From UHGV virus genome UHGV-0130052: a stretch of 12,406 nucleotides of DNA; one strand, 5' to 3'. This DNA is from a virus. The position numbers were made by a program, and so were the translations under genes. Of this stretch, positions 1,357 to 12,265 are shown one piece after another (within the stretch, counting starts at the first letter, position 1; every line of letters begins with the position of its first letter). The notes under the pieces were generated by a model. That model did no database searches, was not told the origin of the DNA, and saw only the letters and a list, made by a program, of their open reading frames with translations.

Positions 1357-1375
1357 AGGAGGCATTACGCCTCCT
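1357..1375 (-). terminator. Hairpin over the stop codon of the recombinase gene (possible terminator)
   Basis: AGGAGGC-ATTAC-GCCTCCT 7-bp GC-rich stem; downstream on the minus strand is UUGAUAUUUGA, only moderately U-rich. Confidence 0.25.
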
Positions 1376-1904
1376 CTTCTTCCTTCTTGATACGTTGCAC
1401 CGTTGAAGGAGCAACATTAAAGCTCTCGGCGGTTTTACGCACTGACAGGCCATCAGAAAGGGCTTTCTTTATACCTTCTCGATCCACTGCTTTTCCATTA
1501 CCACGTTTTGTAGGATTGACGGCTTGCGCTTCTCGTTTACGTTCTAACATCAGTTCACGTTCACACGTTGCAACTGCCGACAACATCGTAAGCATCATCT
1601 TTCCCATCGCGCTTGTAATGTCTGCAATGATTCCTTCTTTGTGAAATCGAACAATTACACCTCGATTATTAAGTTGTTCAACTAAAGCAAGGATGTCTAA
1701 GGTGTTACGTCCTAAACGGTCGAGAGAGTGCACGTGTAAGGTGTCGCCTTCTCTCAGATAGGCTAAACACGCTTGTAAGCCTGGGCGGTTAGTGTCTTTA
1801 CCAGACAGCTTATCTTCAAAGACTTTATCGAGAGTTACTCCTGCAAGCTGGCGATCAGTGTTCTGATCTACAGTGCTCACACGCTTATAACCGATATTGC
1901 TCAT
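1365..1904 (-). CDS. Serine recombinase, resolvase/invertase family (179 aa) with C-terminal HTH
   Basis: N-terminal GYKRVSTVDQNTDRQ catalytic-serine motif; SLDRLGRN and SAMGKMMLTMLSAVATCERELMLER segments resemble Tn3 TnpR/Hin as I recall them; C-terminal SVRKTAESFNVAPSTVQRI HTH; AAGAGGA Shine-Dalgarno before the start. Confidence 0.9.
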   Translation of the reverse strand: MSNIGYKRVSTVDQNTDRQLAGVTLDKVFEDKLSGKDTNRPGLQACLAYLREGDTLHVHSLDRLGRNTLDILALVEQLNNRGVIVRFHKEGIIADITSAMGKMMLTMLSAVATCERELMLERKREAQAVNPTKRGNGKAVDREGIKKALSDGLSVRKTAESFNVAPSTVQRIKKEEEEA

Positions 1905-1943
1905 AAAATCCTCTTAATGTGTCGATTTGGCACTACTTCAATG

Positions 1944-1979
1944 CAAATGAGTATACCGTATTCATTTGGTCTGTTTCAA
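1944..1979 (-). promoter_or_regulatory. Putative recombinase promoter (-35 TTGAAA, 18-bp spacer, -10 TATACT on minus strand) overlapping an imperfect dyad CAAATGAGTATAC-C-GTATTCATTTG (res site I candidate)
   Basis: Hexamers read directly on the minus strand at 1974-1979 and 1950-1955; the dyad spans 1944-1968 and overlaps the -10. Classic resolvase autoregulatory layout. Confidence 0.45.
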
Positions 1980-2026
1980 GCCTTATGGGTACGGAATATT
2001 ACACGATTTAGCTGTATTCATTTGGT
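1958..2026. repeat. Direct repeat GTATTCATTTGGT x2 (1958-1970, 2014-2026), candidate accessory resolvase subsites
   Basis: Exact 13-mer repeated 56 bp apart immediately upstream of the recombinase gene. Confidence 0.5.
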
Positions 2027-2047
2027 ATGCCTAATGGATACACAGGG

Positions 2048-2477
2048 GGATAGATTAAATGATGTTCTGTTTATACAGGTTTATTTGTTAGATCAACAAT
2101 TTGGCATTTCTAAACAGATGTTTGAACGTTGCCAAATGTCTTGACAACACAAGAAAAGGGCTTGCTATGCCACGCATTACACGAAATAAGGCTGTAAAAA
2201 CAAAATAAATTTTAAAATTTGCACAAACGAGAAAACTCGTTCAGAAACAAGCAGAACAATTTTTAGCCAACAATTTATGATGGTGCTTTGTAAGCCGCAT
2301 TACACAAGGCTTTGCGAAAGTGATGTAAAAGTGAAGAAAGTGAGAATTGCACTTTTAGCTACTTTTTCATTGAATTTTTAGTATGGAATTACACAGGGAA
2401 TAGAGAGCATTATTCTATGATTTACACAGGGAATATAGGGGGATTATGGCACACACATAGAAAGACATTACACAGAG
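2048..2477. repeat. Iteron-like family: TTACACAGGGAATA (2389-2402 and 2422-2435, exact), ATACACAGGGGGATAG (2048-2063), CGCATTACAC (2173-2182, 2296-2305), CATTACACAG (2466-2475)
   Basis: Exact and near-exact direct repeats seen in sequence; two perfect 14-mers are 33 bp apart. A degenerate copy ATTACATAAGGGAAT sits at ~3432-3446. Confidence 0.6.
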
Positions 2478-2520
2478 TGCTATGTGACAAATGGATGTAA
2501 CGGTAGGTCATAGTGAGCTA

Positions 2521-2609
2521 CCCCCACAGAATTCTGTTAATCTTAACTTTTAAAGAGATTTGTACCCTAACAAAATTCTGTTACCCCACCCCCACAGAAT
2601 TCTGTTACC
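2521..2609. repeat. Three ~20-bp iterons each containing a 12-bp palindrome: CCCCCACAGAATTCTGTTA (2521-2540, 2589-2608) and variant CCCTAACAAAATTCTGTTACCCC (2565-2587)
   Basis: ACAGAATTCTGT is a perfect palindrome; copies are direct repeats flanked by C-runs and are immediately followed by an AT-rich tract. Confidence 0.7.
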
Positions 2610-2670
2610 TATTAGATCATTTATTAAATTACTTATTAAATTATAATATTATATATTTATTTATATGATC
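2610..2670. other. AT-rich tract (almost pure A/T), candidate DNA-unwinding element of an origin
   Basis: TATTAGATCATTTATTAAATTACTTATTAAATTATAATATTATATATTTATTTATATGATC directly downstream of the palindromic iterons. Confidence 0.4.
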
Positions 2671-2840
2671 TTTTGCCTTCCGGCGTTAGCTTCACTCTCT
2701 GGCAAGCAGCCTTACTCCGCTACCTTTCGGGCTACGTTGGCTGGCCCGTTCCGCTCACACCGAAAGCAAAGCGTTACTTTCTTCGTGTAACTATCGTTGG
2801 CGGTAACGCCCACGAAGAAATACTATTGCGCTGTGCGCAG
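2671..2840. other. GC-rich, highly self-complementary island in an otherwise AT-rich non-coding region (candidate structured RNA or cis-acting DNA site; strand unknown)
   Basis: Perfect 10-bp stem TTTCTTCGTG (2778-2787) / CACGAAGAAA (2811-2820) enclosing a GGCG-GTAA-CGCC hairpin (2799-2810); CTTTCGG (2724-2730) / CCGAAAG (2760-2766); TGCGC-TGT-GCGCA hairpin (~2827-2839). The overlapping ORF 2673-2951 looks non-coding. Confidence 0.3.
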
Positions 2841-3476
2841 AAGAGTAATCACCTAACCAATCATACTGATTGCTTATGTGTTAACTCTATCTCTCTACTC
2901 TTAATTACCCTCCTACATTTAATAACTCTGTTATTCTCTGTAGTTGTGTAATTGTTTTCGGTGGAAAAGCCAGAGGCGACACCGAAAGAGAATTCTGATC
3001 TTATTAATCTTATCTATCTTAGTTAATCTTCTTACTTATCTTACTTACTTTATCTACTTTATTATTAATAATAGCTTTATAAGCTCTCTGCGTAGCTCTC
3101 TGACGCAAGAAACAGCATTCAGGAAGGGAATCACCTTAGAAAAGTGTTCTTTGCGTCATAATGTGTTTTATGAAGGATTCAGAGGTGTTTCATAACAGGA
3201 ATGTATAGAGGATACTTTAATTAATTAAAAATAAGGGGTCTAAATGCTTCTCTAACAGCATTAAGCAGGGTAGGGAATGGAAACGCATTGCCTACACATA
3301 TAAGCTCACTACAGGGCTTTACAGGGCGTTTTATAAAGTGACTCTCTATCTTATATCTACCATTACCTTTTCATATACCTAACAAATACAAAATAAGCCC
3401 CTTAAATAAGCCTCTGGCGAGCTAAACAGCCATTACATAAGGGAATGTATTGCTTTTATCAAAATCTCGTTATAAC

Positions 3477-3496
3477 GCGTTTTAGAGCGTTTTAGA
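3477..3496. repeat. Tandem direct repeat GCGTTTTAGA x2, candidate operator ~85 bp upstream of the 3581 promoter
   Basis: Exact 10-bp tandem duplication seen in sequence. Confidence 0.5.
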
Positions 3497-3580
3497 CAAT
3501 AATGAAGAATGGCACTACACAGAAGAGCACGAGTTGCTCGTAAGTGCATGAAAAAGATCGATTTTTTTCGGAAGGGGTAT

Positions 3581-3609
3581 TGACAAACGTCTCTTTCTGT
3601 GCAATAATA
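3581..3609 (+). promoter_or_regulatory. Sigma70-like promoter: -35 TTGACA (3581-3586), 17-bp spacer, -10 AATAAT (3604-3609), for the 3733-5986 operon
   Basis: Consensus -35 with optimal spacer; near-consensus -10; ~120 nt upstream of a gene with a strong AGGAGG ribosome-binding site. Confidence 0.5.
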
Positions 3610-3732
3610 GGAATTAGAGGGGACAGGAATAGATTCTTATCCTCTAAATAATTAAACCAATGCACCGCACTTTGAAGCCCAAGGCTTGCAAGGTGTTTTT
3701 TCTTTTAACCAAATAGAATAGGAGGTTAATTA

Positions 3733-3921
3733 GTGAAGTATTTCACTTCTCAAGATGTAGTTGAAGCCTGGAAACGTGGTGAGATCAACCGCTTTAAAGT
3801 AAGGATGTATAGAAACACCGCTCGCCGTTGTGGTTATCCAGAGCGTGAAAAATGTTTTGACGATGCACTGAAAATTATTGATGAACTGCGTAAAGCTGAG
3901 AAAGAAGCTGAGAAAGAATAA
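3733..3921 (+). CDS. Small hypothetical protein (62 aa), GTG start, charged C-terminal tail
   Basis: AGGAGG 7 nt upstream of GTG; first gene of the rightward operon. No family recognised. Confidence 0.55.
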   Translation: MKYFTSQDVVEAWKRGEINRFKVRMYRNTARRCGYPEREKCFDDALKIIDELRKAEKEAEKE

Positions 3922-4162: not shown

Positions 4163-4816
4163 ATGATTAATGAAGAACAATTTGTAAAAGTTCCTATGTG
4201 GATTCTAAAAATAAGCCAAGTAAACGGGCATAAATTTACAGATAGTGCTAAAAACCTTTACTGCTATCTGAAAGGGTTTGATCGTGCATTTCCCTCTTAC
4301 GCTAAGATAGGCGATGTTTTTGGCATAACACCAAGAGCAGCAGAGGAAAGGGTTAAGAAATTGCTCGAAATGGGATTAATTATAAAAGATGCACGACCAG
4401 GAAGTTCTAATGTCTATCAAGTGGTAGATATTCCACAAGAAGAAGCTAGACAAGAAGCCAAGACACAACAAGAAGCTACTGTTAAAGCTGTTCCTGATCA
4501 GCTTCCGCCTACGGAAGATAATAAACAGCCTTCTTTTGATGTTCTTGATGATTGGGATACGCCTTTACCGTGGGAGACGGAAGAAACACCTGTTTCATCA
4601 AGTGAAAAGGTAGCTAATGATAATGAGGAGGATGTGTTAGAAAATTTTGCCTCTCTTATTATCAAGCAGAAGAATACCAGAACAGCAGGGGCATCATTTA
4701 TAGAATTTGCAAATTCACTAGCTTATAGACACGGGCTAAAACGACCAAATGGTATTGAGGCATATTTTGCTAAGAAACATCCCAAAGTATACGAAGACTT
4801 TGATATTCCATTTTAA
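4163..4816 (+). CDS. Putative replication initiator/replisome-organiser-like protein: N-terminal winged-HTH, acidic C-terminal region (217 aa)
   Basis: AAGGAG Shine-Dalgarno; N-terminal segment (YAKIGDVFGITPRAAEERVKKLLEMGLI) has the look of phage/plasmid initiator wHTH domains; acidic DDWDTPLPWETEETP stretch. Function is inferred, not demonstrated. Confidence 0.45.
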   Translation: MINEEQFVKVPMWILKISQVNGHKFTDSAKNLYCYLKGFDRAFPSYAKIGDVFGITPRAAEERVKKLLEMGLIIKDARPGSSNVYQVVDIPQEEARQEAKTQQEATVKAVPDQLPPTEDNKQPSFDVLDDWDTPLPWETEETPVSSSEKVANDNEEDVLENFASLIIKQKNTRTAGASFIEFANSLAYRHGLKRPNGIEAYFAKKHPKVYEDFDIPF

Positions 4817-6908: not shown

Positions 6909-7937
6909 ATGATTCTAGGTAATGATTACGTTGATTTGATCCCTCTGTTCCAGACACACAGCACGCGTAACTTCCTGCTCTCTACCCTTGATTTTACGGA
7001 TTCTGTAGGGGTTACATCTCATAAAGTAGCTGTTTCACAGCTTGTCGAAAGCAACGAATCTCTGTTCAACAAAGAAACCTCTCGTTTCTCTTCTGAACAC
7101 AACGTTACTAAGCGAGAACAAGGTAAAGAATGGCTGATTGAAATCCCTTACTTCCTACGTGAAGATGTGATCCGTCCTTCTGATGTTCAAGGCAAGCGTA
7201 AACCTGGCACTGATTTCCAGGAAACACTCACTGATATTTATGCTGAGTATGTTGCTAAACATCACGTAGCGTATCAGCGTACAAAAGAGAGCGTGTTGGC
7301 GGCTTCTTTGTTCTCTGGCAAAACTTACACGCCTAAAACTGATGATGTTCTTATCGAGTGGGGCAAGCTGTTTAACGTATCAGCTATGAAAGCCACTGTG
7401 AACGCTTCCAGCACTGACACCACGAAGATTTTTAAAGAATTTGATCAGATTGCTACTGACATTATCGAAAAAGCACAAAGCCAGGCGGCTGCTGTAGAGC
7501 GTATTGTTGTTTTCTGTAAGCCGGAAGCCTTCTCTGCAATTCGATTCTCTGCGGGTATGGCAAACGCATTCCAGTATGTAAGCCCACTGGAAGAAGGGAA
7601 CGTTGTGTATCAGCGTCGTGACCTGCTACCAGGAGTGACAGCGTTCACTATTCCAGGAACTAACATTGATGTTGTTAAACTGGTAGATCCGCTACACCTG
7701 GCACATATGACCGCAGACGCTGTAGCTGTGCCTAAATTCTCTAAGGGTAGCGGAATTTATACCAATATCTTCGGGGCTGCTTCCAGCACCTTTGAACTGA
7801 TTAATGCCGCTCCTGCTGAGGTGTATAGCTATAGCTATGAATCTTCTCGTGGTGATGCTGTTAACGTTGTTACAGAGAATAGCCAGATGGTTGTAAACCA
7901 CGGTGTAGGCTTCTCCGTTCAAATCACTGTTAAATAA
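6909..7937 (+). CDS. Putative major capsid protein, lambda gpE-like family (342 aa)
   Basis: Length close to lambda gpE (341 aa). Local similarities to gpE as I recall it: RIVVFCKPEAFSAIRFS vs IIVFDPKGWALFRSF, LFSGKTYTPKTDD vs VLKGKYTMTGE, C-terminal FSVQI vs VSVQLA, N-terminal DLIPLFQ vs FDPLFLR. Followed by a strong terminator. Not verified by search. Confidence 0.55.
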   Translation: MILGNDYVDLIPLFQTHSTRNFLLSTLDFTDSVGVTSHKVAVSQLVESNESLFNKETSRFSSEHNVTKREQGKEWLIEIPYFLREDVIRPSDVQGKRKPGTDFQETLTDIYAEYVAKHHVAYQRTKESVLAASLFSGKTYTPKTDDVLIEWGKLFNVSAMKATVNASSTDTTKIFKEFDQIATDIIEKAQSQAAAVERIVVFCKPEAFSAIRFSAGMANAFQYVSPLEEGNVVYQRRDLLPGVTAFTIPGTNIDVVKLVDPLHLAHMTADAVAVPKFSKGSGIYTNIFGAASSTFELINAAPAEVYSYSYESSRGDAVNVVTENSQMVVNHGVGFSVQITVK

Positions 7938-8242: not shown

Positions 8243-10084
8243 ATGTTAGAAATTAACACTTCTAAAATTAAGAACACAGTAACATTTAGTGTAGATAAAG
8301 ACAGCTTGAAAAAAGCGAAAGACTCTATTACAGGCTTAAAGGAATTCGCAGAAAATATCAAGCCAGCTAAATTGAGATTTGATAATGTCACTAAAGGCTA
8401 TAAGAAAGCACAAAGTGAAGTAGACAAGATTACTCAACAGAAAGCTAAAACAGAAAAACAGAATCAAAGAGCACAAGCTGCCGCAGCAAGAGCACAGGCA
8501 AGGCAACAGGCACAAATAGCAGCACGTAAAGAGAAAGCAGAATTAAAACTTCTCGATGTGTCAAGCTCTATCAGTGCAATGCACCGCCTCTCTGTAGCGG
8601 AACAATACAAAGCTATTGCACAGGCTAGAGAGATAGCAAAACAATATGAGCAAGGGGCTATCTCGCTTGCACGTATGAATAGCCAGATGAAACGCCTACA
8701 ACAACAACAACGTAAGATTAATGGCAACAGAAAAACTCAATTAGCCCCCGTTAAGGGAGGATCAGGGAATTCCGCCACTATGGGCGCTCTGTTATTTGGA
8801 GGCGCTACGGCTGCTGCTGGCGTGATGGCTGTTAGCAAAGCGGCGGAGTTTGTTAGTAGCAGTTTCGCTAACGCAGAGACCCAAGGGGAGCTAATCCAAC
8901 GTGCCAAGCTGGGCGGTGTAGACGTTAACCAGATGTATAATATTACAGAATGGGCCTATAGACACGGGATCGATAGCCTCCAGGGAGATCAAGGGGCTAG
9001 GAAATACCTGGATCAGATGAAAGATGTTAGGGAACGTGCCGCAAAATCCTACAGTGAAGCTGAATTGGTGAAAGACAAGAAAACCGGAAAATCTGAATGG
9101 AAAGGCGGTGATAACGCTATTAATGAACTTCTAAACATCGGTGTTATTAACAAAAGCGACCTTAAAAAATTTGCTGATAATCCAGCCGGATTAATTTCTA
9201 AGGCTGTTAATGGAATGATGAAAAAAGGGTTTTCAGACTCCCAAATTGGACAACGTTTAGAAGACCTGGGCGATGATTTGATGCTTACATCAAAATATTG
9301 GCAACGTTCCGTTAAAGATGTACAAGAAAGTATTAATCAGCAAAAAGCCTCTGGAAAATGGCTAACAGAAACACAGCAAGAATCTATTGTTAAATTCAGA
9401 GAACTAAACAGACAGCTTTCACAGCTTTCTGATGCAAGACAAGTAGCATTTGTAGACGGCTTTATGAAATCTCTCGATCCAAAAGTAACGGAAGAGTTTA
9501 TGAAAAACCTTTCTAATCTCACTCCGTATTTTACGAAGCTGGGTGAAGCCGCAGGAAGTCTTTTTGACGCCATTATGAAGATTGTAAACTGGTTTAATCG
9601 TAATGATGATAAGACAGATGCTATTCAGAAAAATATGGGTGATGCACCGCCACTATCTAACGATGGAATGAAACAGAATCTTTCTAACCTCGTTCCTGAT
9701 AAATATAAAGGCGCTGGCACTGCAACAACTACACCTGATAATAGTCATTCCCTCTTTAACACAATTAAGGGATTGCTTTTCGATGATAAGTCTTCTGTGT
9801 CAGATGTAAAAATGTCAGTCAGCGAAGCACCGATAACCAATCTCAAACAGGGTGCTTTAAATAATCTTGCAATGACAACTCCGGCTTATAATTTATCTCC
9901 TGTGTTTAATCTGAATCCTACATTTGAAGTGGTAACAGAGGTTCCGCTTACTATTAATTCTGACACATCCAGATTAAGCGATTATGTGGATTTTACAGCG
10001 AGAGCAAGTCGGGATAGCTTCTTGAAATCATTAACATTAACCAGCTTGTCAGGACAATCCAACGGCGGGGAATTCCCGCCATAA
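8243..10084 (+). CDS. Large hypothetical protein (613 aa): N-terminal coiled-coil-like region rich in Q/A/K/R, Gly/Ala-rich hydrophobic segment, large C-terminal domain; tape-measure-like or scaffold-like
   Basis: AAGGGGA 6 nt upstream of ATG; residues ~60-170 are helical and low complexity (QRAQAAAARAQARQQAQIAARKEKAELKLL); hydrophobic TMGALLFGGATAAAGVMAV; no catalytic motif recognised. Confidence 0.6.
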   Translation: MLEINTSKIKNTVTFSVDKDSLKKAKDSITGLKEFAENIKPAKLRFDNVTKGYKKAQSEVDKITQQKAKTEKQNQRAQAAAARAQARQQAQIAARKEKAELKLLDVSSSISAMHRLSVAEQYKAIAQAREIAKQYEQGAISLARMNSQMKRLQQQQRKINGNRKTQLAPVKGGSGNSATMGALLFGGATAAAGVMAVSKAAEFVSSSFANAETQGELIQRAKLGGVDVNQMYNITEWAYRHGIDSLQGDQGARKYLDQMKDVRERAAKSYSEAELVKDKKTGKSEWKGGDNAINELLNIGVINKSDLKKFADNPAGLISKAVNGMMKKGFSDSQIGQRLEDLGDDLMLTSKYWQRSVKDVQESINQQKASGKWLTETQQESIVKFRELNRQLSQLSDARQVAFVDGFMKSLDPKVTEEFMKNLSNLTPYFTKLGEAAGSLFDAIMKIVNWFNRNDDKTDAIQKNMGDAPPLSNDGMKQNLSNLVPDKYKGAGTATTTPDNSHSLFNTIKGLLFDDKSSVSDVKMSVSEAPITNLKQGALNNLAMTTPAYNLSPVFNLNPTFEVVTEVPLTINSDTSRLSDYVDFTARASRDSFLKSLTLTSLSGQSNGGEFPP

Positions 10085-10105: not shown

Positions 10106-10819
10106 ATGGCGACCGCCGGGATTTTAACCATACGATCAGCAAACTCCCCAGAACAACACGTTCAGGCTGTTTACAAAGCAGAACAAGATATAAACTCTAC
10201 AAAAAACACAAATAACTCTGCCTCTACTGTGAAAGGAGAGAATGGATTTGCTATTGTTACCAGTGGCTTGGCATCTTCTGGTAATGACGTTTATGAAAAT
10301 TATATGGCACTGGCCTTTGACAGTGTTGACGATGTGAACGTGAGACGTTCGGCAGATGTCACAAGCTACCCCGTAGAGAATGGTGCTACTGTGTCTGATC
10401 ACGTTCAAATTAAAAACAATAAGTTTTCTCTTAAAGGGCGTATCTCTGAAACACCGATTAAAAGCGATCCTGGCTTGTTAAAGAGTGCAGGGGTGAACGG
10501 GAACAGAAGATCATTAGCTATCGACTACCTGAATCAGATTATGGACAGTAGACAGCCTTTTCTTCTTGTTACAGAAAATAAAACTTTTGAGAACGTTGTT
10601 TTAACAGGCATCGAATACACAGAAGAGGCAAGCGAATCCCTGGTATTTGATCTTAGCTTTGAACAAATCAGATTAGTTTCTTATGGCACTGTAAACACTG
10701 TAGCTATCAAAACACAGCCATCTAAGAACATAGGGGCTAATATGAAAAAACGTGTTAACACTGAAAAAGCAAGTAGTGAAGGTGAAGACACTATTACTCC
10801 TGCCTTTAAACAGGAATAG
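10106..10819 (+). CDS. Hypothetical protein (237 aa), composition suggests beta-rich; possible virion or accessory protein
   Basis: AAGGA upstream of ATG; last gene of the operon, convergent with the integrase; no motif recognised. Confidence 0.55.
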   Translation: MATAGILTIRSANSPEQHVQAVYKAEQDINSTKNTNNSASTVKGENGFAIVTSGLASSGNDVYENYMALAFDSVDDVNVRRSADVTSYPVENGATVSDHVQIKNNKFSLKGRISETPIKSDPGLLKSAGVNGNRRSLAIDYLNQIMDSRQPFLLVTENKTFENVVLTGIEYTEEASESLVFDLSFEQIRLVSYGTVNTVAIKTQPSKNIGANMKKRVNTEKASSEGEDTITPAFKQE

Positions 10820-10900: not shown

Positions 10901-12265
10901 CTATGGTGTTGTTTTACGCCTTAAATTTGATTTTTTATTGATTGATAAGCCTTTCTCTATTTCAGGGTAGCGTAGAAGCTCAATATATTTTTTAAGCTCT
11001 ACTGGAGAAGCTGCATTCTTGCTATATGTGCGGAATGTCTCTGTATTGCCGCGTGTATGGCCCAGGAGAAGGGCGATCCTGTCTTCTGGAATTTGATTTC
11101 GATCAAGAAGCTGTGCTACTCCGTGTCTCAGAGAATGAAACACCTTCCTTTCTGTTCCCTTTTCCCCTAAAGCCTTTCGTTTAGCTCTTGTAAATCTCTG
11201 CGTGTGCCACGTAGAGCGTTTACCATCTACACGCTCTGTAATGCTGGCGTGATAGAACAAAAAGCCATTATGAGGCTTTTCACGCAGCGACAACACCAAC
11301 GGAGTGATAAGGCTGTGTACAGGCACAACACGTGCCGCAGCTTTCGTTTTTCCCTGTGTGATTTCAAAACACAGCACACCTTCGATCTCTTTCACATCGT
11401 CTATTGTGAGACTTGCTATCTCATTGATCCGCATACCTGTATATAAACCGATAAGACACAAAGCCATCATTTCTTTGTTTTCTGCTGAATTACCGGAAAA
11501 TACTTGCAACACCTGCAATAGCTCTTTGTTAGAAAATGCCTCGTAGCTCTCTCTACTTTGTGCCACATCAAGCCTATGCCCTCGCCAGGGGGAGAGCGCC
11601 CTTTCTGGCGCATCGTGGTAACGTGATGAAGCTAACTCCCATAGCTGGGCCATTGGGCTGATATAATTTGCAATTGATTGTTGTGAAAGGGTTTTTTGCA
11701 TGTGTTCAATCCAGCCTGTAACAGTGGTGCGGCTTACATCTTGCAATGCAATATCAGGCTTTTTACGGTAGGAGAGAAACATCTCTACCGCTTTTCTTGC
11801 CTTAGCTAAAGTGGCTGGCTTCTTCTTCGTGCTGTTAATTGTCAGGTAGATTTCAAGAATTTTAAGCAATGACGGACACGAAGACGCTGTATCTTGCATT
11901 CTGGTAGCTGTTTTGGCGTATTTAGCCTTACTGCGTAACAGCTCCAGCGTGTTCTCTATTGTGCTGTTTACAGGGGCGACACTCTCCCGTAGACAATGGT
12001 ATTCATCTGCAATCTGATCACGCTTTCTACGTGCAACACGAAGATTACTTGTGTGCAGACTCCTGACAAACGTCCTTTTTCCTTCAAAAAAGGGCTGCAT
12101 ATACACAGGCAACGTGATCCTCAAATAGTAGTTACCGTAAGAATCACAGATTATGTATTGATTGGGCTTGTATCTCATAAACTCCCCGGCTAAAGTGTCG
12201 GAGCGTTTGTAATGTGAAAATTGATTGTGACGCATAGAAAATGATGATTTTTCTATAAGATTCAA
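10901..12265 (-). CDS. int: Tyrosine site-specific integrase (454 aa)
   Basis: C-terminal catalytic-domain motifs HSLRHGVAQLL and LLGHTRGNTETFRTY (His/Arg/Tyr signature); start lies ~55 bp from the right-hand att repeat and the gene reads away from it. The ribosome-binding site is weak, so the exact start is uncertain. Confidence 0.9.
   Translation of the reverse strand: MNLIEKSSFSMRHNQFSHYKRSDTLAGEFMRYKPNQYIICDSYGNYYLRITLPVYMQPFFEGKRTFVRSLHTSNLRVARRKRDQIADEYHCLRESVAPVNSTIENTLELLRSKAKYAKTATRMQDTASSCPSLLKILEIYLTINSTKKKPATLAKARKAVEMFLSYRKKPDIALQDVSRTTVTGWIEHMQKTLSQQSIANYISPMAQLWELASSRYHDAPERALSPWRGHRLDVAQSRESYEAFSNKELLQVLQVFSGNSAENKEMMALCLIGLYTGMRINEIASLTIDDVKEIEGVLCFEITQGKTKAAARVVPVHSLITPLVLSLREKPHNGFLFYHASITERVDGKRSTWHTQRFTRAKRKALGEKGTERKVFHSLRHGVAQLLDRNQIPEDRIALLLGHTRGNTETFRTYSKNAASPVELKKYIELLRYPEIEKGLSINKKSNLRRKTTP

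Follow-up and report, generated by a model that had tools for sequence, protein, structure and literature searches.

What is a GC-rich, strongly self-complementary island doing in the AT-rich, gene-free part of an integrated element? The locus lies in virus genome UHGV-0130052, a stretch of 12,406 nucleotides (nt), referred to here as the window, which holds an integrated element of about 12.3 kb. The initial annotation had placed the island at 2671-3200 and had proposed a structured non-coding RNA, a cos/pac packaging signal or a single-strand initiation site. We find that the island is part of a longer conserved module of hairpins whose fold is kept by compensatory change, whose position next to the replication origin is invariant, and which is independent of the specificity of both the initiator and the direct repeats (iterons) of that origin. 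Our tentative reading, which we hold as falling a little short of probable, is that the module may be a folded single-stranded-DNA accessory of a satellite origin, that is, a structure-defined entry for host or helper replication proteins that would not depend on the initiator.

The GC content of the window rises from 0.325 (2501-2700) to 0.49 (2701-2900) and falls back to 0.315 (2901-3100), and the whole island (2665-2850) folds with a z score of -2.1 on the + strand and -2.9 on the - strand, so that the description of a GC-rich, self-complementary island in AT-rich non-coding DNA is borne out. The perfect 10-base-pair (bp) stem with a GNRA-type hairpin that had been noticed there is equally real, and belongs to a segment of 49 nt (2775-2823) whose predicted fold is a three-way junction made of the following parts:

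2778-2787 with 2811-2820: 10-bp perfect inverted repeat, the closing stem of the three-way junction
2789-2798: hairpin A, AAC-TATC-GTT, enclosed by the 10-bp stem
2799-2810: hairpin B, GGCG-GTAA-CGCC, enclosed by the 10-bp stem

Folded as DNA, the 49 nt reach -13.7 kcal/mol on the + strand (z -5.7) and -14.5 on the - strand (z -6.4); folded as RNA they reach -17.6 on each strand (z -4.4 on the + strand, -3.9 on the - strand). None of 200 shuffles attained the junction's folding energy. The module as a whole and its other parts, all given on the + strand, are these:

2671 to about 3335: whole conserved non-coding hairpin module, delimited by alignments of divergent copies, with the GC island as its 5′ third
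2691-2757: domain 1, whose helix P1 consists of GGC 2701-2703/GCC 2744-2746 and CAGCC 2707-2711/GGCTG 2739-2743
2828-2838: palindromic block GCGC-TGT-GCGC, nearly invariant in all families (one has GCGCTATGCGC)
2858-2872: hairpin CAATCA-TAC-TGATTG
2921-2935: hairpin AATAAC-TCT-GTTATT
2955/2956-2963 with 2980-2988: hairpin of 8-9 bp with a conserved GCCAGAGG motif in its loop, the stem being present only in the window's family
3101-3158: 14-nt imperfect inverted repeat, TGACGCAAGAAACA / TGTTCTTTGCGTCA, only in the window's family (z -1.8 to -3.1)
3266-3333: 3′ conserved block, CAGGGTAGGGAATG ... TTACAGGGCGTTTTA, whose homologue closes the module in other families

Inside helix P1 lie 27 nt, and after it comes the nearly invariant CGTTCCGCTCA (2747-2757). 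The palindromic block at 2828-2838 has an alternative pairing possible with GCAAAGCG at 2766-2773. Single-sequence folding had offered another helix for domain 1, GGGC/GCCC, which we dropped; column 61 covaries with column 14 and not with column 47. The further hairpin annotated at about 2955-2987 was recovered at 2955-2988, with z scores of -2.8 to -4.1 overall and, on the + strand, of -3.4 as DNA and -4.1 as RNA.

One boundary needed correction, as the conserved unit continues past 3200 to about 3335. Searching viral, genome and metagenome collections by sequence pattern, and adding divergent copies from E. coli, we recovered the module in 55 loci that amount to 32 distinct versions at 97% identity, from Escherichia, Enterobacter, Citrobacter and metagenomes, and its size among relatives is about 550-650 nt. 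On its left it is bounded by a conserved GATC(T/A)TTTGC. Compared across these versions it is a mosaic in which short, nearly invariant blocks (GGCAAG; CGTTCCGCTCA; GCGCTGTGCGC; CCAACCA...TGATTG; GGCTAAGGCT; TAAGTGCCAGAGG; TACAGnnnGTTTT) lie between hairpins, and the sequence of a hairpin may be swapped wholesale while the hairpin itself is retained. A covariance model of domain 1 (R1) matches 2691-2757 at 53.4 bits and finds one copy in each element scanned, including five copies beyond the text-pattern set, with no further match in 305 kb.

Several smaller observations concern the same region. Between about 3000 and 3077 the window's family alone has a G-poor, pyrimidine-rich stretch of TTATCT / TTACTT units, at the position of which locus L011 carries TTATCCACT, one base off a DnaA box; a perfect TTATCCACA box stands 660-730 nt past the CCGCTC anchor in 6 of the 32 variants, all of them from other families. 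The motif TACAGnnnGTTTT(A/G) recurs at the 3′ end of the module in all families, at times in tandem (3319-3333 and 3470-3494 in the window), and could be a binding site. In L057, a metagenome contig, junction hairpin B reads CCGT-TTC-ACGG, the exact inversion of the usual CCGT-GAA-ACGG, which looks like a flip of the kind made by template switching at a palindrome.

Covariation across related elements had been proposed as a check on the predicted fold, and both P1 and the three-way junction do covary. MAFFT followed by RNAalifold mis-aligned the inner helix of domain 1 and returned just 5 pairs, and two hand-curated, N-padded alignments were used instead, one of domain 1 (26 distinct sequences) and one of the junction (16 distinct sequences). 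P1 takes the form TGACC/GGTCA, TGTCC/GGACA or TC[TC]ACC/GGT[TC]GA in other families, with 5 pairs altered on both sides (26 cells); its covariation of 0.161 compares with 0.088 in shuffles, none of 500 of which reached the observed value, and slid registers gave at most 0.05. The outer helix of domain 1, P0, is weak, with 59% of cells paired. The signal of the junction is larger: 10 of its 22 pairs are altered on both sides (66 cells) among 16 sequence versions, and covariation stands at 0.405 against 0.124 in shuffles (again 0 of 500 as high), with slid registers at or below 0.08.

Similar exchanges were seen by eye in the hairpins further downstream. The one at 2858-2872 occurs elsewhere as CAACCATC-TAAC-GATGATTG or CAACCAAC-TACC-GTTGATTG, with a T-A to A-T exchange and a C.A mismatch; the one at 2921-2935 is found as GATAAC-TACC-GTTATC, with an A-T to G-C exchange; and a further helix alternates between TTGCC/GGCAA, ATGCC/GGCAT and TACGCC/GGCGTA. 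Perfect Watson-Crick hairpins number 6.4 per 600 nt as against 2.5 in shuffles, a 2.5-fold excess, and across the 32 variants the 5′ 230 nt fold better than their shuffles on both strands (mean z -2.3 and -3.0).

The surroundings of the module are those of a replication origin, and are laid out in the window as follows:

2520-2607, + strand: three iterons (ACCCCCACAGAATTCTGTTA and one variant), direct repeats of the element's replication origin
2608-2670: AT-rich unwinding region, with GATC at 2615-2618 and 2667-2670
3580-3608: near-consensus sigma-70 promoter TTGACA-17-AATAAT, with an equivalent in 31 of the 31 variants tested (mean 14.3 bits)
up to 3705: leader of about 90 nt ending in a hairpin and a T-run (about 3663-3701), just ahead of the GTG start of the next open reading frame (ORF)
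3733-3921: conserved ORF of 62 amino acids (aa) with a GTG start
4163-4816: O-like replication initiator, matching the PHROG 'replication initiation O-like' families

Direct repeats occur at the same relative position in all 32 variants, in 2-5 copies (3-5 in 30 of the 32), and end about 150-170 nt ahead of the CCGCTC anchor, yet their sequences fall into at least 12 unrelated types. Between repeats and module the AT-rich stretch reaches a maximum A+T of 0.68-0.97 over 40 nt among the variants (97% in the window, about 130 nt upstream of the anchor at roughly 2620-2660), and the module begins a few bases after it. GATC sites are concentrated there as well, with 56 of them in the two 50-nt bins from -150 to -51 relative to the anchor (observed from -148 to -66) in the 32 variants, compared with 0-7 per 50-nt bin in the module and elsewhere in the upstream flank. 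On the right side of the module, the near-consensus sigma-70 promoter is followed in every version by a short leader, the conserved small ORF and then the initiator; the leader, with its hairpin and T-run, looks like a terminated or attenuated early leader.

Direct repeats beside an AT-rich region, with a cognate initiator that covaries with them, are what characterises an iteron-type origin. Within the window's family the module is 90.8-98.1% identical where it can be aligned, the capsid gene 88-96% and the invertase 98%, while identity of the initiator protein is as low as 37-96%, its changes going along with those of the iterons. Joint exchange of iterons and initiator was observed in otherwise nearly identical elements (loci L011, L014, L017 and L025), with more than 1.5 kb of conserved DNA between the two exchanged parts, and relatives use unrelated initiators, such as a DUF6945 protein in L003. 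Because the module is conserved while iterons and initiator are swapped together, these comparisons identify it as a constant piece flanked by the two parts of the origin that confer specificity and can be exchanged.

The evidence on which strand folds, and on whether it does so as RNA or as DNA, is of several kinds. Among 95 single mismatches flanked by Watson-Crick pairs, 10 were G.T and 15 A.C, and the gain in hairpins was about equal whichever of the two was allowed. P1 contains no one-sided (wobble) change at all; the few G.U-compatible changes on the + strand include U.G in 18 of the 26 sequences in the 3-bp inner helix of domain 1, and several helices repeatedly show A.C mismatches, the equivalent of G.U on the - strand. 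The - strand folds lower in energy in 29 of the 32 variants, but its shuffles are lower too. The loops of junction hairpin B read GTAA, GAAA (or a GAA triloop), GTGA and GAGA on the + strand in independently replaced versions, and GNRA tetraloops among all hairpins found number 8 on the + strand versus 1 on the - strand; the loop is nevertheless not fixed, since two copies of the window's family have ATAA and L057 has TTC, and more 3′ hairpins have G..A loops on the minus strand. Energy, mismatch type, hairpin counts and loop type give indecisive or conflicting answers, and neither strand is favoured.

No conserved sigma-70 promoter was found to enter the module from either side, the scan using the sigma-70 model only. 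The best score averaged 7.6 bits for the + strand, entering from upstream, and 8.1 bits for the - strand, entering from the right; both are background-level values at sites that are not conserved, the internal control of the scan averaging 6.4 bits and the conserved downstream promoter 14.3 bits. Intrinsic terminators were likewise absent from the + strand in the window, L003 and L004, and none lies at the 3′ end of the module. The Rfam search that had been suggested as a check, run with Rfam 15 (4,227 models) on the window and 11 relatives, once with gathering and once with permissive thresholds, returned no family over the module and matched flanking tRNAs and TPP riboswitches only. Structured RNAs usually use G.U pairs freely. 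Since there is no wobble signature, both strands behave alike and the module has no promoter of its own, we prefer DNA hairpins to an RNA gene: a Watson-Crick-only fold that is equal on both strands looks more like the former, and we infer that the DNA itself, rather than an RNA copy, would be the active form.

The element that carries the module has these further features in the window:

1-51: tRNA gene, 3′ portion, truncated at the window edge (34.3 bits to the Rfam tRNA family)
1365-1904, minus strand: Hin-like serine recombinase
1905-3732: gene-free stretch of 1.8 kb
6909-7937: lambda-E-type major capsid protein
8243-10084: 613-aa protein
10106-10819: Dit-like tail protein
10901-12265, minus strand: tyrosine integrase

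The tRNA fragment marks the left junction of the integrated element. The element resembles a phage satellite in carrying genes for a capsid protein and for tail-related proteins. Its 613-aa protein is homologous, at about 35% identity, to gp134 of phage phi92 and to tape-measure proteins of about 134 phage records, mainly E. coli phages, among them Justusliebigvirus and Phapecoctavirus with genomes of about 130-150 kb, and because of this homology phi92-like virulent phages appear to be candidate helpers of the satellite-like island. Of 5,426 complete E. coli genomes, 518 contain the 1-kb stretch 2400-3400 and 438 the island itself, nearly always on the chromosome, with a median of 1 and a maximum of 3 copies per genome. 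Annotated copies adjoin tRNA-Gly (L001, L071) or tRNA-Thr (L002), the region itself being without annotation. Our literature search turned up no description of this island family, which is apparently previously undescribed; the PIME elements of a 2026 preprint (10.64898/2026.01.12.698999) were considered and set aside as another family, which carries traJ/trbJ/trbL.

A small recombinase is encoded next to the non-coding region in relatives too. It is of the serine type in the window, in L004 and in L021, and is a tyrosine recombinase of about 186 aa in L003 (2429-2989). Left of it lies variable cargo with TIR-domain and AIPR-family genes among it, which may serve in defence. The stretches concerned are 1-975 in L004 and 2183-3205 in L021. 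Between the recombinase gene and the iterons a hairpin, AACGAG-AAAA-CTCGTT, is conserved (2226-2241 in the window, 3481-3500 in L003), with a terminator-like score on the minus strand in L003. The shortened relatives L020, L004 and L021 adjoin thiM and contain the origin, the module, small ORFs, the initiator and a DUF6998 gene; L020 is 2,818,723-2,819,248 of E. coli B strain C2566, and the copy in the E. coli B laboratory lineage is split by IS1.

Among the three functions offered by the initial annotation, a single-strand initiation or origin site fits best, because the module abuts the origin in every variant checked, pairs by Watson-Crick pairs only and has no conserved sigma-70 promoter; that the element is folded and non-coding stood, and the packaging signal did not find support. 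We hypothesize that the initiator would bind the iterons, upon which the adjacent AT-rich, GATC-rich stretch would melt, and that as unwinding entered the module the separated strands would snap into defined hairpins and branched structures. Strands folded in this way would be poor substrates for single-strand-binding protein and good ones for structure-specific replisome loaders or primases, candidates being the host PriA or DnaG, or a loader or primase of the helper phage. The placement of the first primer or helicase would then be set by the module, whichever initiator had opened the origin, and its activity would presumably be priming or helicase loading.

Some of our results pull away from this folded-DNA origin accessory. 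The module, at about 650 nt and with at least a dozen hairpins, exceeds the characterised single-strand initiation signals (about 40-150 nt) several-fold in size, and blastn against 72,556 plasmids and 50,697 phages found no sequence that it shares with known signals of this kind. Its unpaired conserved stretches (CGTTCCGCTCA, TAAGTGCCAGAGG, GGCTAAGGCT) and the GNRA-type junction loops that recur on the + strand are typical of structured RNAs, and, the promoter scan having covered sigma-70, a helper-phage promoter or read-through from upstream may transcribe the module. The junction arms were located by a search for Watson-Crick helices, which makes their 100% pairing and absence of wobble partly circular; what is independent of that search is that 16 differing sequences at one place are all able to form the same three helices. 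Finally, a sub-domain of about 87 nt (GGCTAA...AGCC closing a variable hairpin; compare L001 9622-9741) is missing from the window copy (about 2937-2953) and from L017 through a deletion between two copies of CTGTAGT(T/C)GTGTAATT, and is kept in the other window-family copies compared and in other families. The loss of a piece present in most relatives means that the module is not essential in its entirety.

The most serious competitor is that the module encodes a large structured non-coding RNA of about 500-650 nt, or the structured part of a longer transcript, acting as a pre-primer or origin-activating transcript or as a regulator or sensor of helper-phage infection. Its size and complexity, seen in the many hairpins, the three-way junction and the unpaired but conserved motifs, would suit an RNA, as would the covariation of P1 and the junction, the GNRA/GNA loops of independently replaced junction hairpins on the + strand and the few G.U-compatible changes there. 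We nonetheless consider an RNA rather unlikely, for every variant has a near-consensus promoter downstream of the module and no conserved sigma-70 promoter points into it, no terminator closes it on the + strand of the window, L003 or L004, strand-specific wobble is lacking, A.C mismatches that would wobble on the opposite strand recur, the GNRA loop itself varies, and Rfam has no relative of it; of the structured-RNA claim, then, the conserved fold stood, and promoter, terminator and family did not materialise. A reading that we rate a shade higher, though still on the unlikely side, is that the module represents an undescribed class of cis-acting element or RNA belonging to a new E. coli satellite family that probably exploits large virulent phi92-like myoviruses. 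In one version it would be a structured RNA of about 600 nt with a part in priming or licensing the replication of the satellite, or in sensing its helper; in the other it would be a branched-DNA landing platform at which any initiator could hand the origin to the helper's replisome.

That the module might instead be a pac or cos site read by the terminase of a helper phage would accord with an element that has capsid and tail-related genes and resembles a phage satellite, with a module that tracks the backbone (the capsid lineage) rather than the initiator, and with its being the largest conserved non-coding block of the element. However, the 50,697 phage records showed no meaningful similarity apart from one 46-nt borderline match, the domain-1 model had no match in phi92, of which bases 1-50,000 were searched (terminal repeat included), and the fixed abutment to the origin would be left unexplained. 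Known cos and pac sites are duplex protein-binding sites without nested compensatory hairpins, and we regard packaging as improbable. We give the same low credence to the duplex alternative, in which the inverted repeats never fold and are operators or resolution or recombination sites for proteins of the element, for example the adjacent small recombinase. The recombinase gene does always lie a few hundred bases left of the module, and palindromes can persist when a dimeric binder shifts its specificity; yet the recombinase class switches from serine to tyrosine with the module retained, and the closing stem with its two adjacent hairpins (3-4-nt loops) is kept through complete sequence replacement. 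Because this nested architecture survives such replacement, we read it as a signature of folding rather than of half-sites. As for small protein genes, ORFs 2673-2951 and 2944-3195 are open on the + strand, but neither matches a Pfam family, and copies at least 97% identical differ by 1-nt indels within ORF 2673-2951 (GTTGGCTGG vs GTGGCTGG; TTTCGGGCT vs TTTGGGCT). Most relatives have an indel of about 87 nt at about 2953, the frames are not kept where segments are replaced or deleted, and in diverged relatives whole hairpins give way to unrelated sequence. Coding is thus effectively excluded, as the initial annotation had supposed in calling both ORFs non-coding.

Should the module be a folded-DNA origin accessory, the origin would consist of two parts, an exchangeable one (iterons and initiator) and a constant, structure-encoded one ten times the size of classical single-strand initiation signals, which would explain how the initiator can change freely with continued access to the same host or helper replication machinery. 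Should it be transcribed instead, it would be a large structured RNA absent from Rfam. This work also draws attention to a satellite-like island family with a capsid gene, a tape-measure-like gene with relatives in phi92-type phages, and a variable cargo in which TIR and AIPR genes occur.

It is useful to set the module beside known systems. Lambdoid origins consist of iterons, an AT-rich region and then a dyad-symmetry block, and the window has direct repeats, an AT-rich stretch and GC-rich dyad symmetry in the same order, together with an O-like initiator. In lambda, however, the O gene itself contains the origin, with a dyad block of about 28 bp, whereas the origin of the window is not within the initiator gene, its iterons (2520-2607) lying about 1.5 kb upstream of 4163-4816, and its dyad region is an array of about 650 nt of covarying nested hairpins, about twenty times larger. 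The ColE1 pre-primer RNA II likewise has about 550 nt of conserved stem-loops adjoining an origin, but it has a strong promoter of its own and an antisense partner and works with no initiator or iterons, whereas the module has no promoter toward or away from the origin and has both initiator and iterons. The GOLLD, ROOL, HEARO and STAXI RNAs are similar in being several hundred nt long, with many helices, and in residing on mobile elements; the module matches none of the Rfam 15 models. In architecture, the T-shaped terminal hairpins of parvoviruses and adeno-associated virus (AAV) may come close, with two short hairpins (loops of 3-4 nt) enclosed by a closing stem, in single-stranded DNA and in the service of replication. 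Those are the ends of a linear single-stranded DNA genome that are used with a nicking HUH Rep, while the module sits inside a double-stranded integrated element whose initiator is unrelated, and the likeness is one of resemblance only.

Plasmids were compared as well: none of the 72,556 plasmid records gave a meaningful match to the module or similarity to the origin of transfer (oriT) of conjugative or mobilisable plasmids, and blastn in 'distant' mode with the island and the module of a relative, against the phages and plasmids, showed no relation to the signals of G4, R1/R100, F, R6K or ColE1-type replicons. These negatives speak against the module mimicking a helper cos/pac site or a plasmid oriT, and also against its being homologous to the single-strand initiation signals described so far. 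Two possible likenesses are leads only: that of TAAGTGCCAGAGG to the RSF1010 nick region, and that of GCGCTGTGCGC to a primase CTG start site, where L016 has CTA for CTG. In function, the closest analogues would be the single-strand initiation and primosome assembly sites, namely the G4-type G-site of R1, the PriA sites of the phiX174 type and ssiA/ssiB of RSF1010. Known signals of this class measure about 40-150 nt and have one to three hairpins, and the module differs from them in its length of about 650 nt and in showing no clear strand specificity in our comparisons. R1 and RSF1010 place their single-strand initiation hairpins beside the melted region, and it is this arrangement that the module shares: hairpin DNA just past the melted part of an iteron origin, in which structure counts for more than sequence and which is independent of the initiator.

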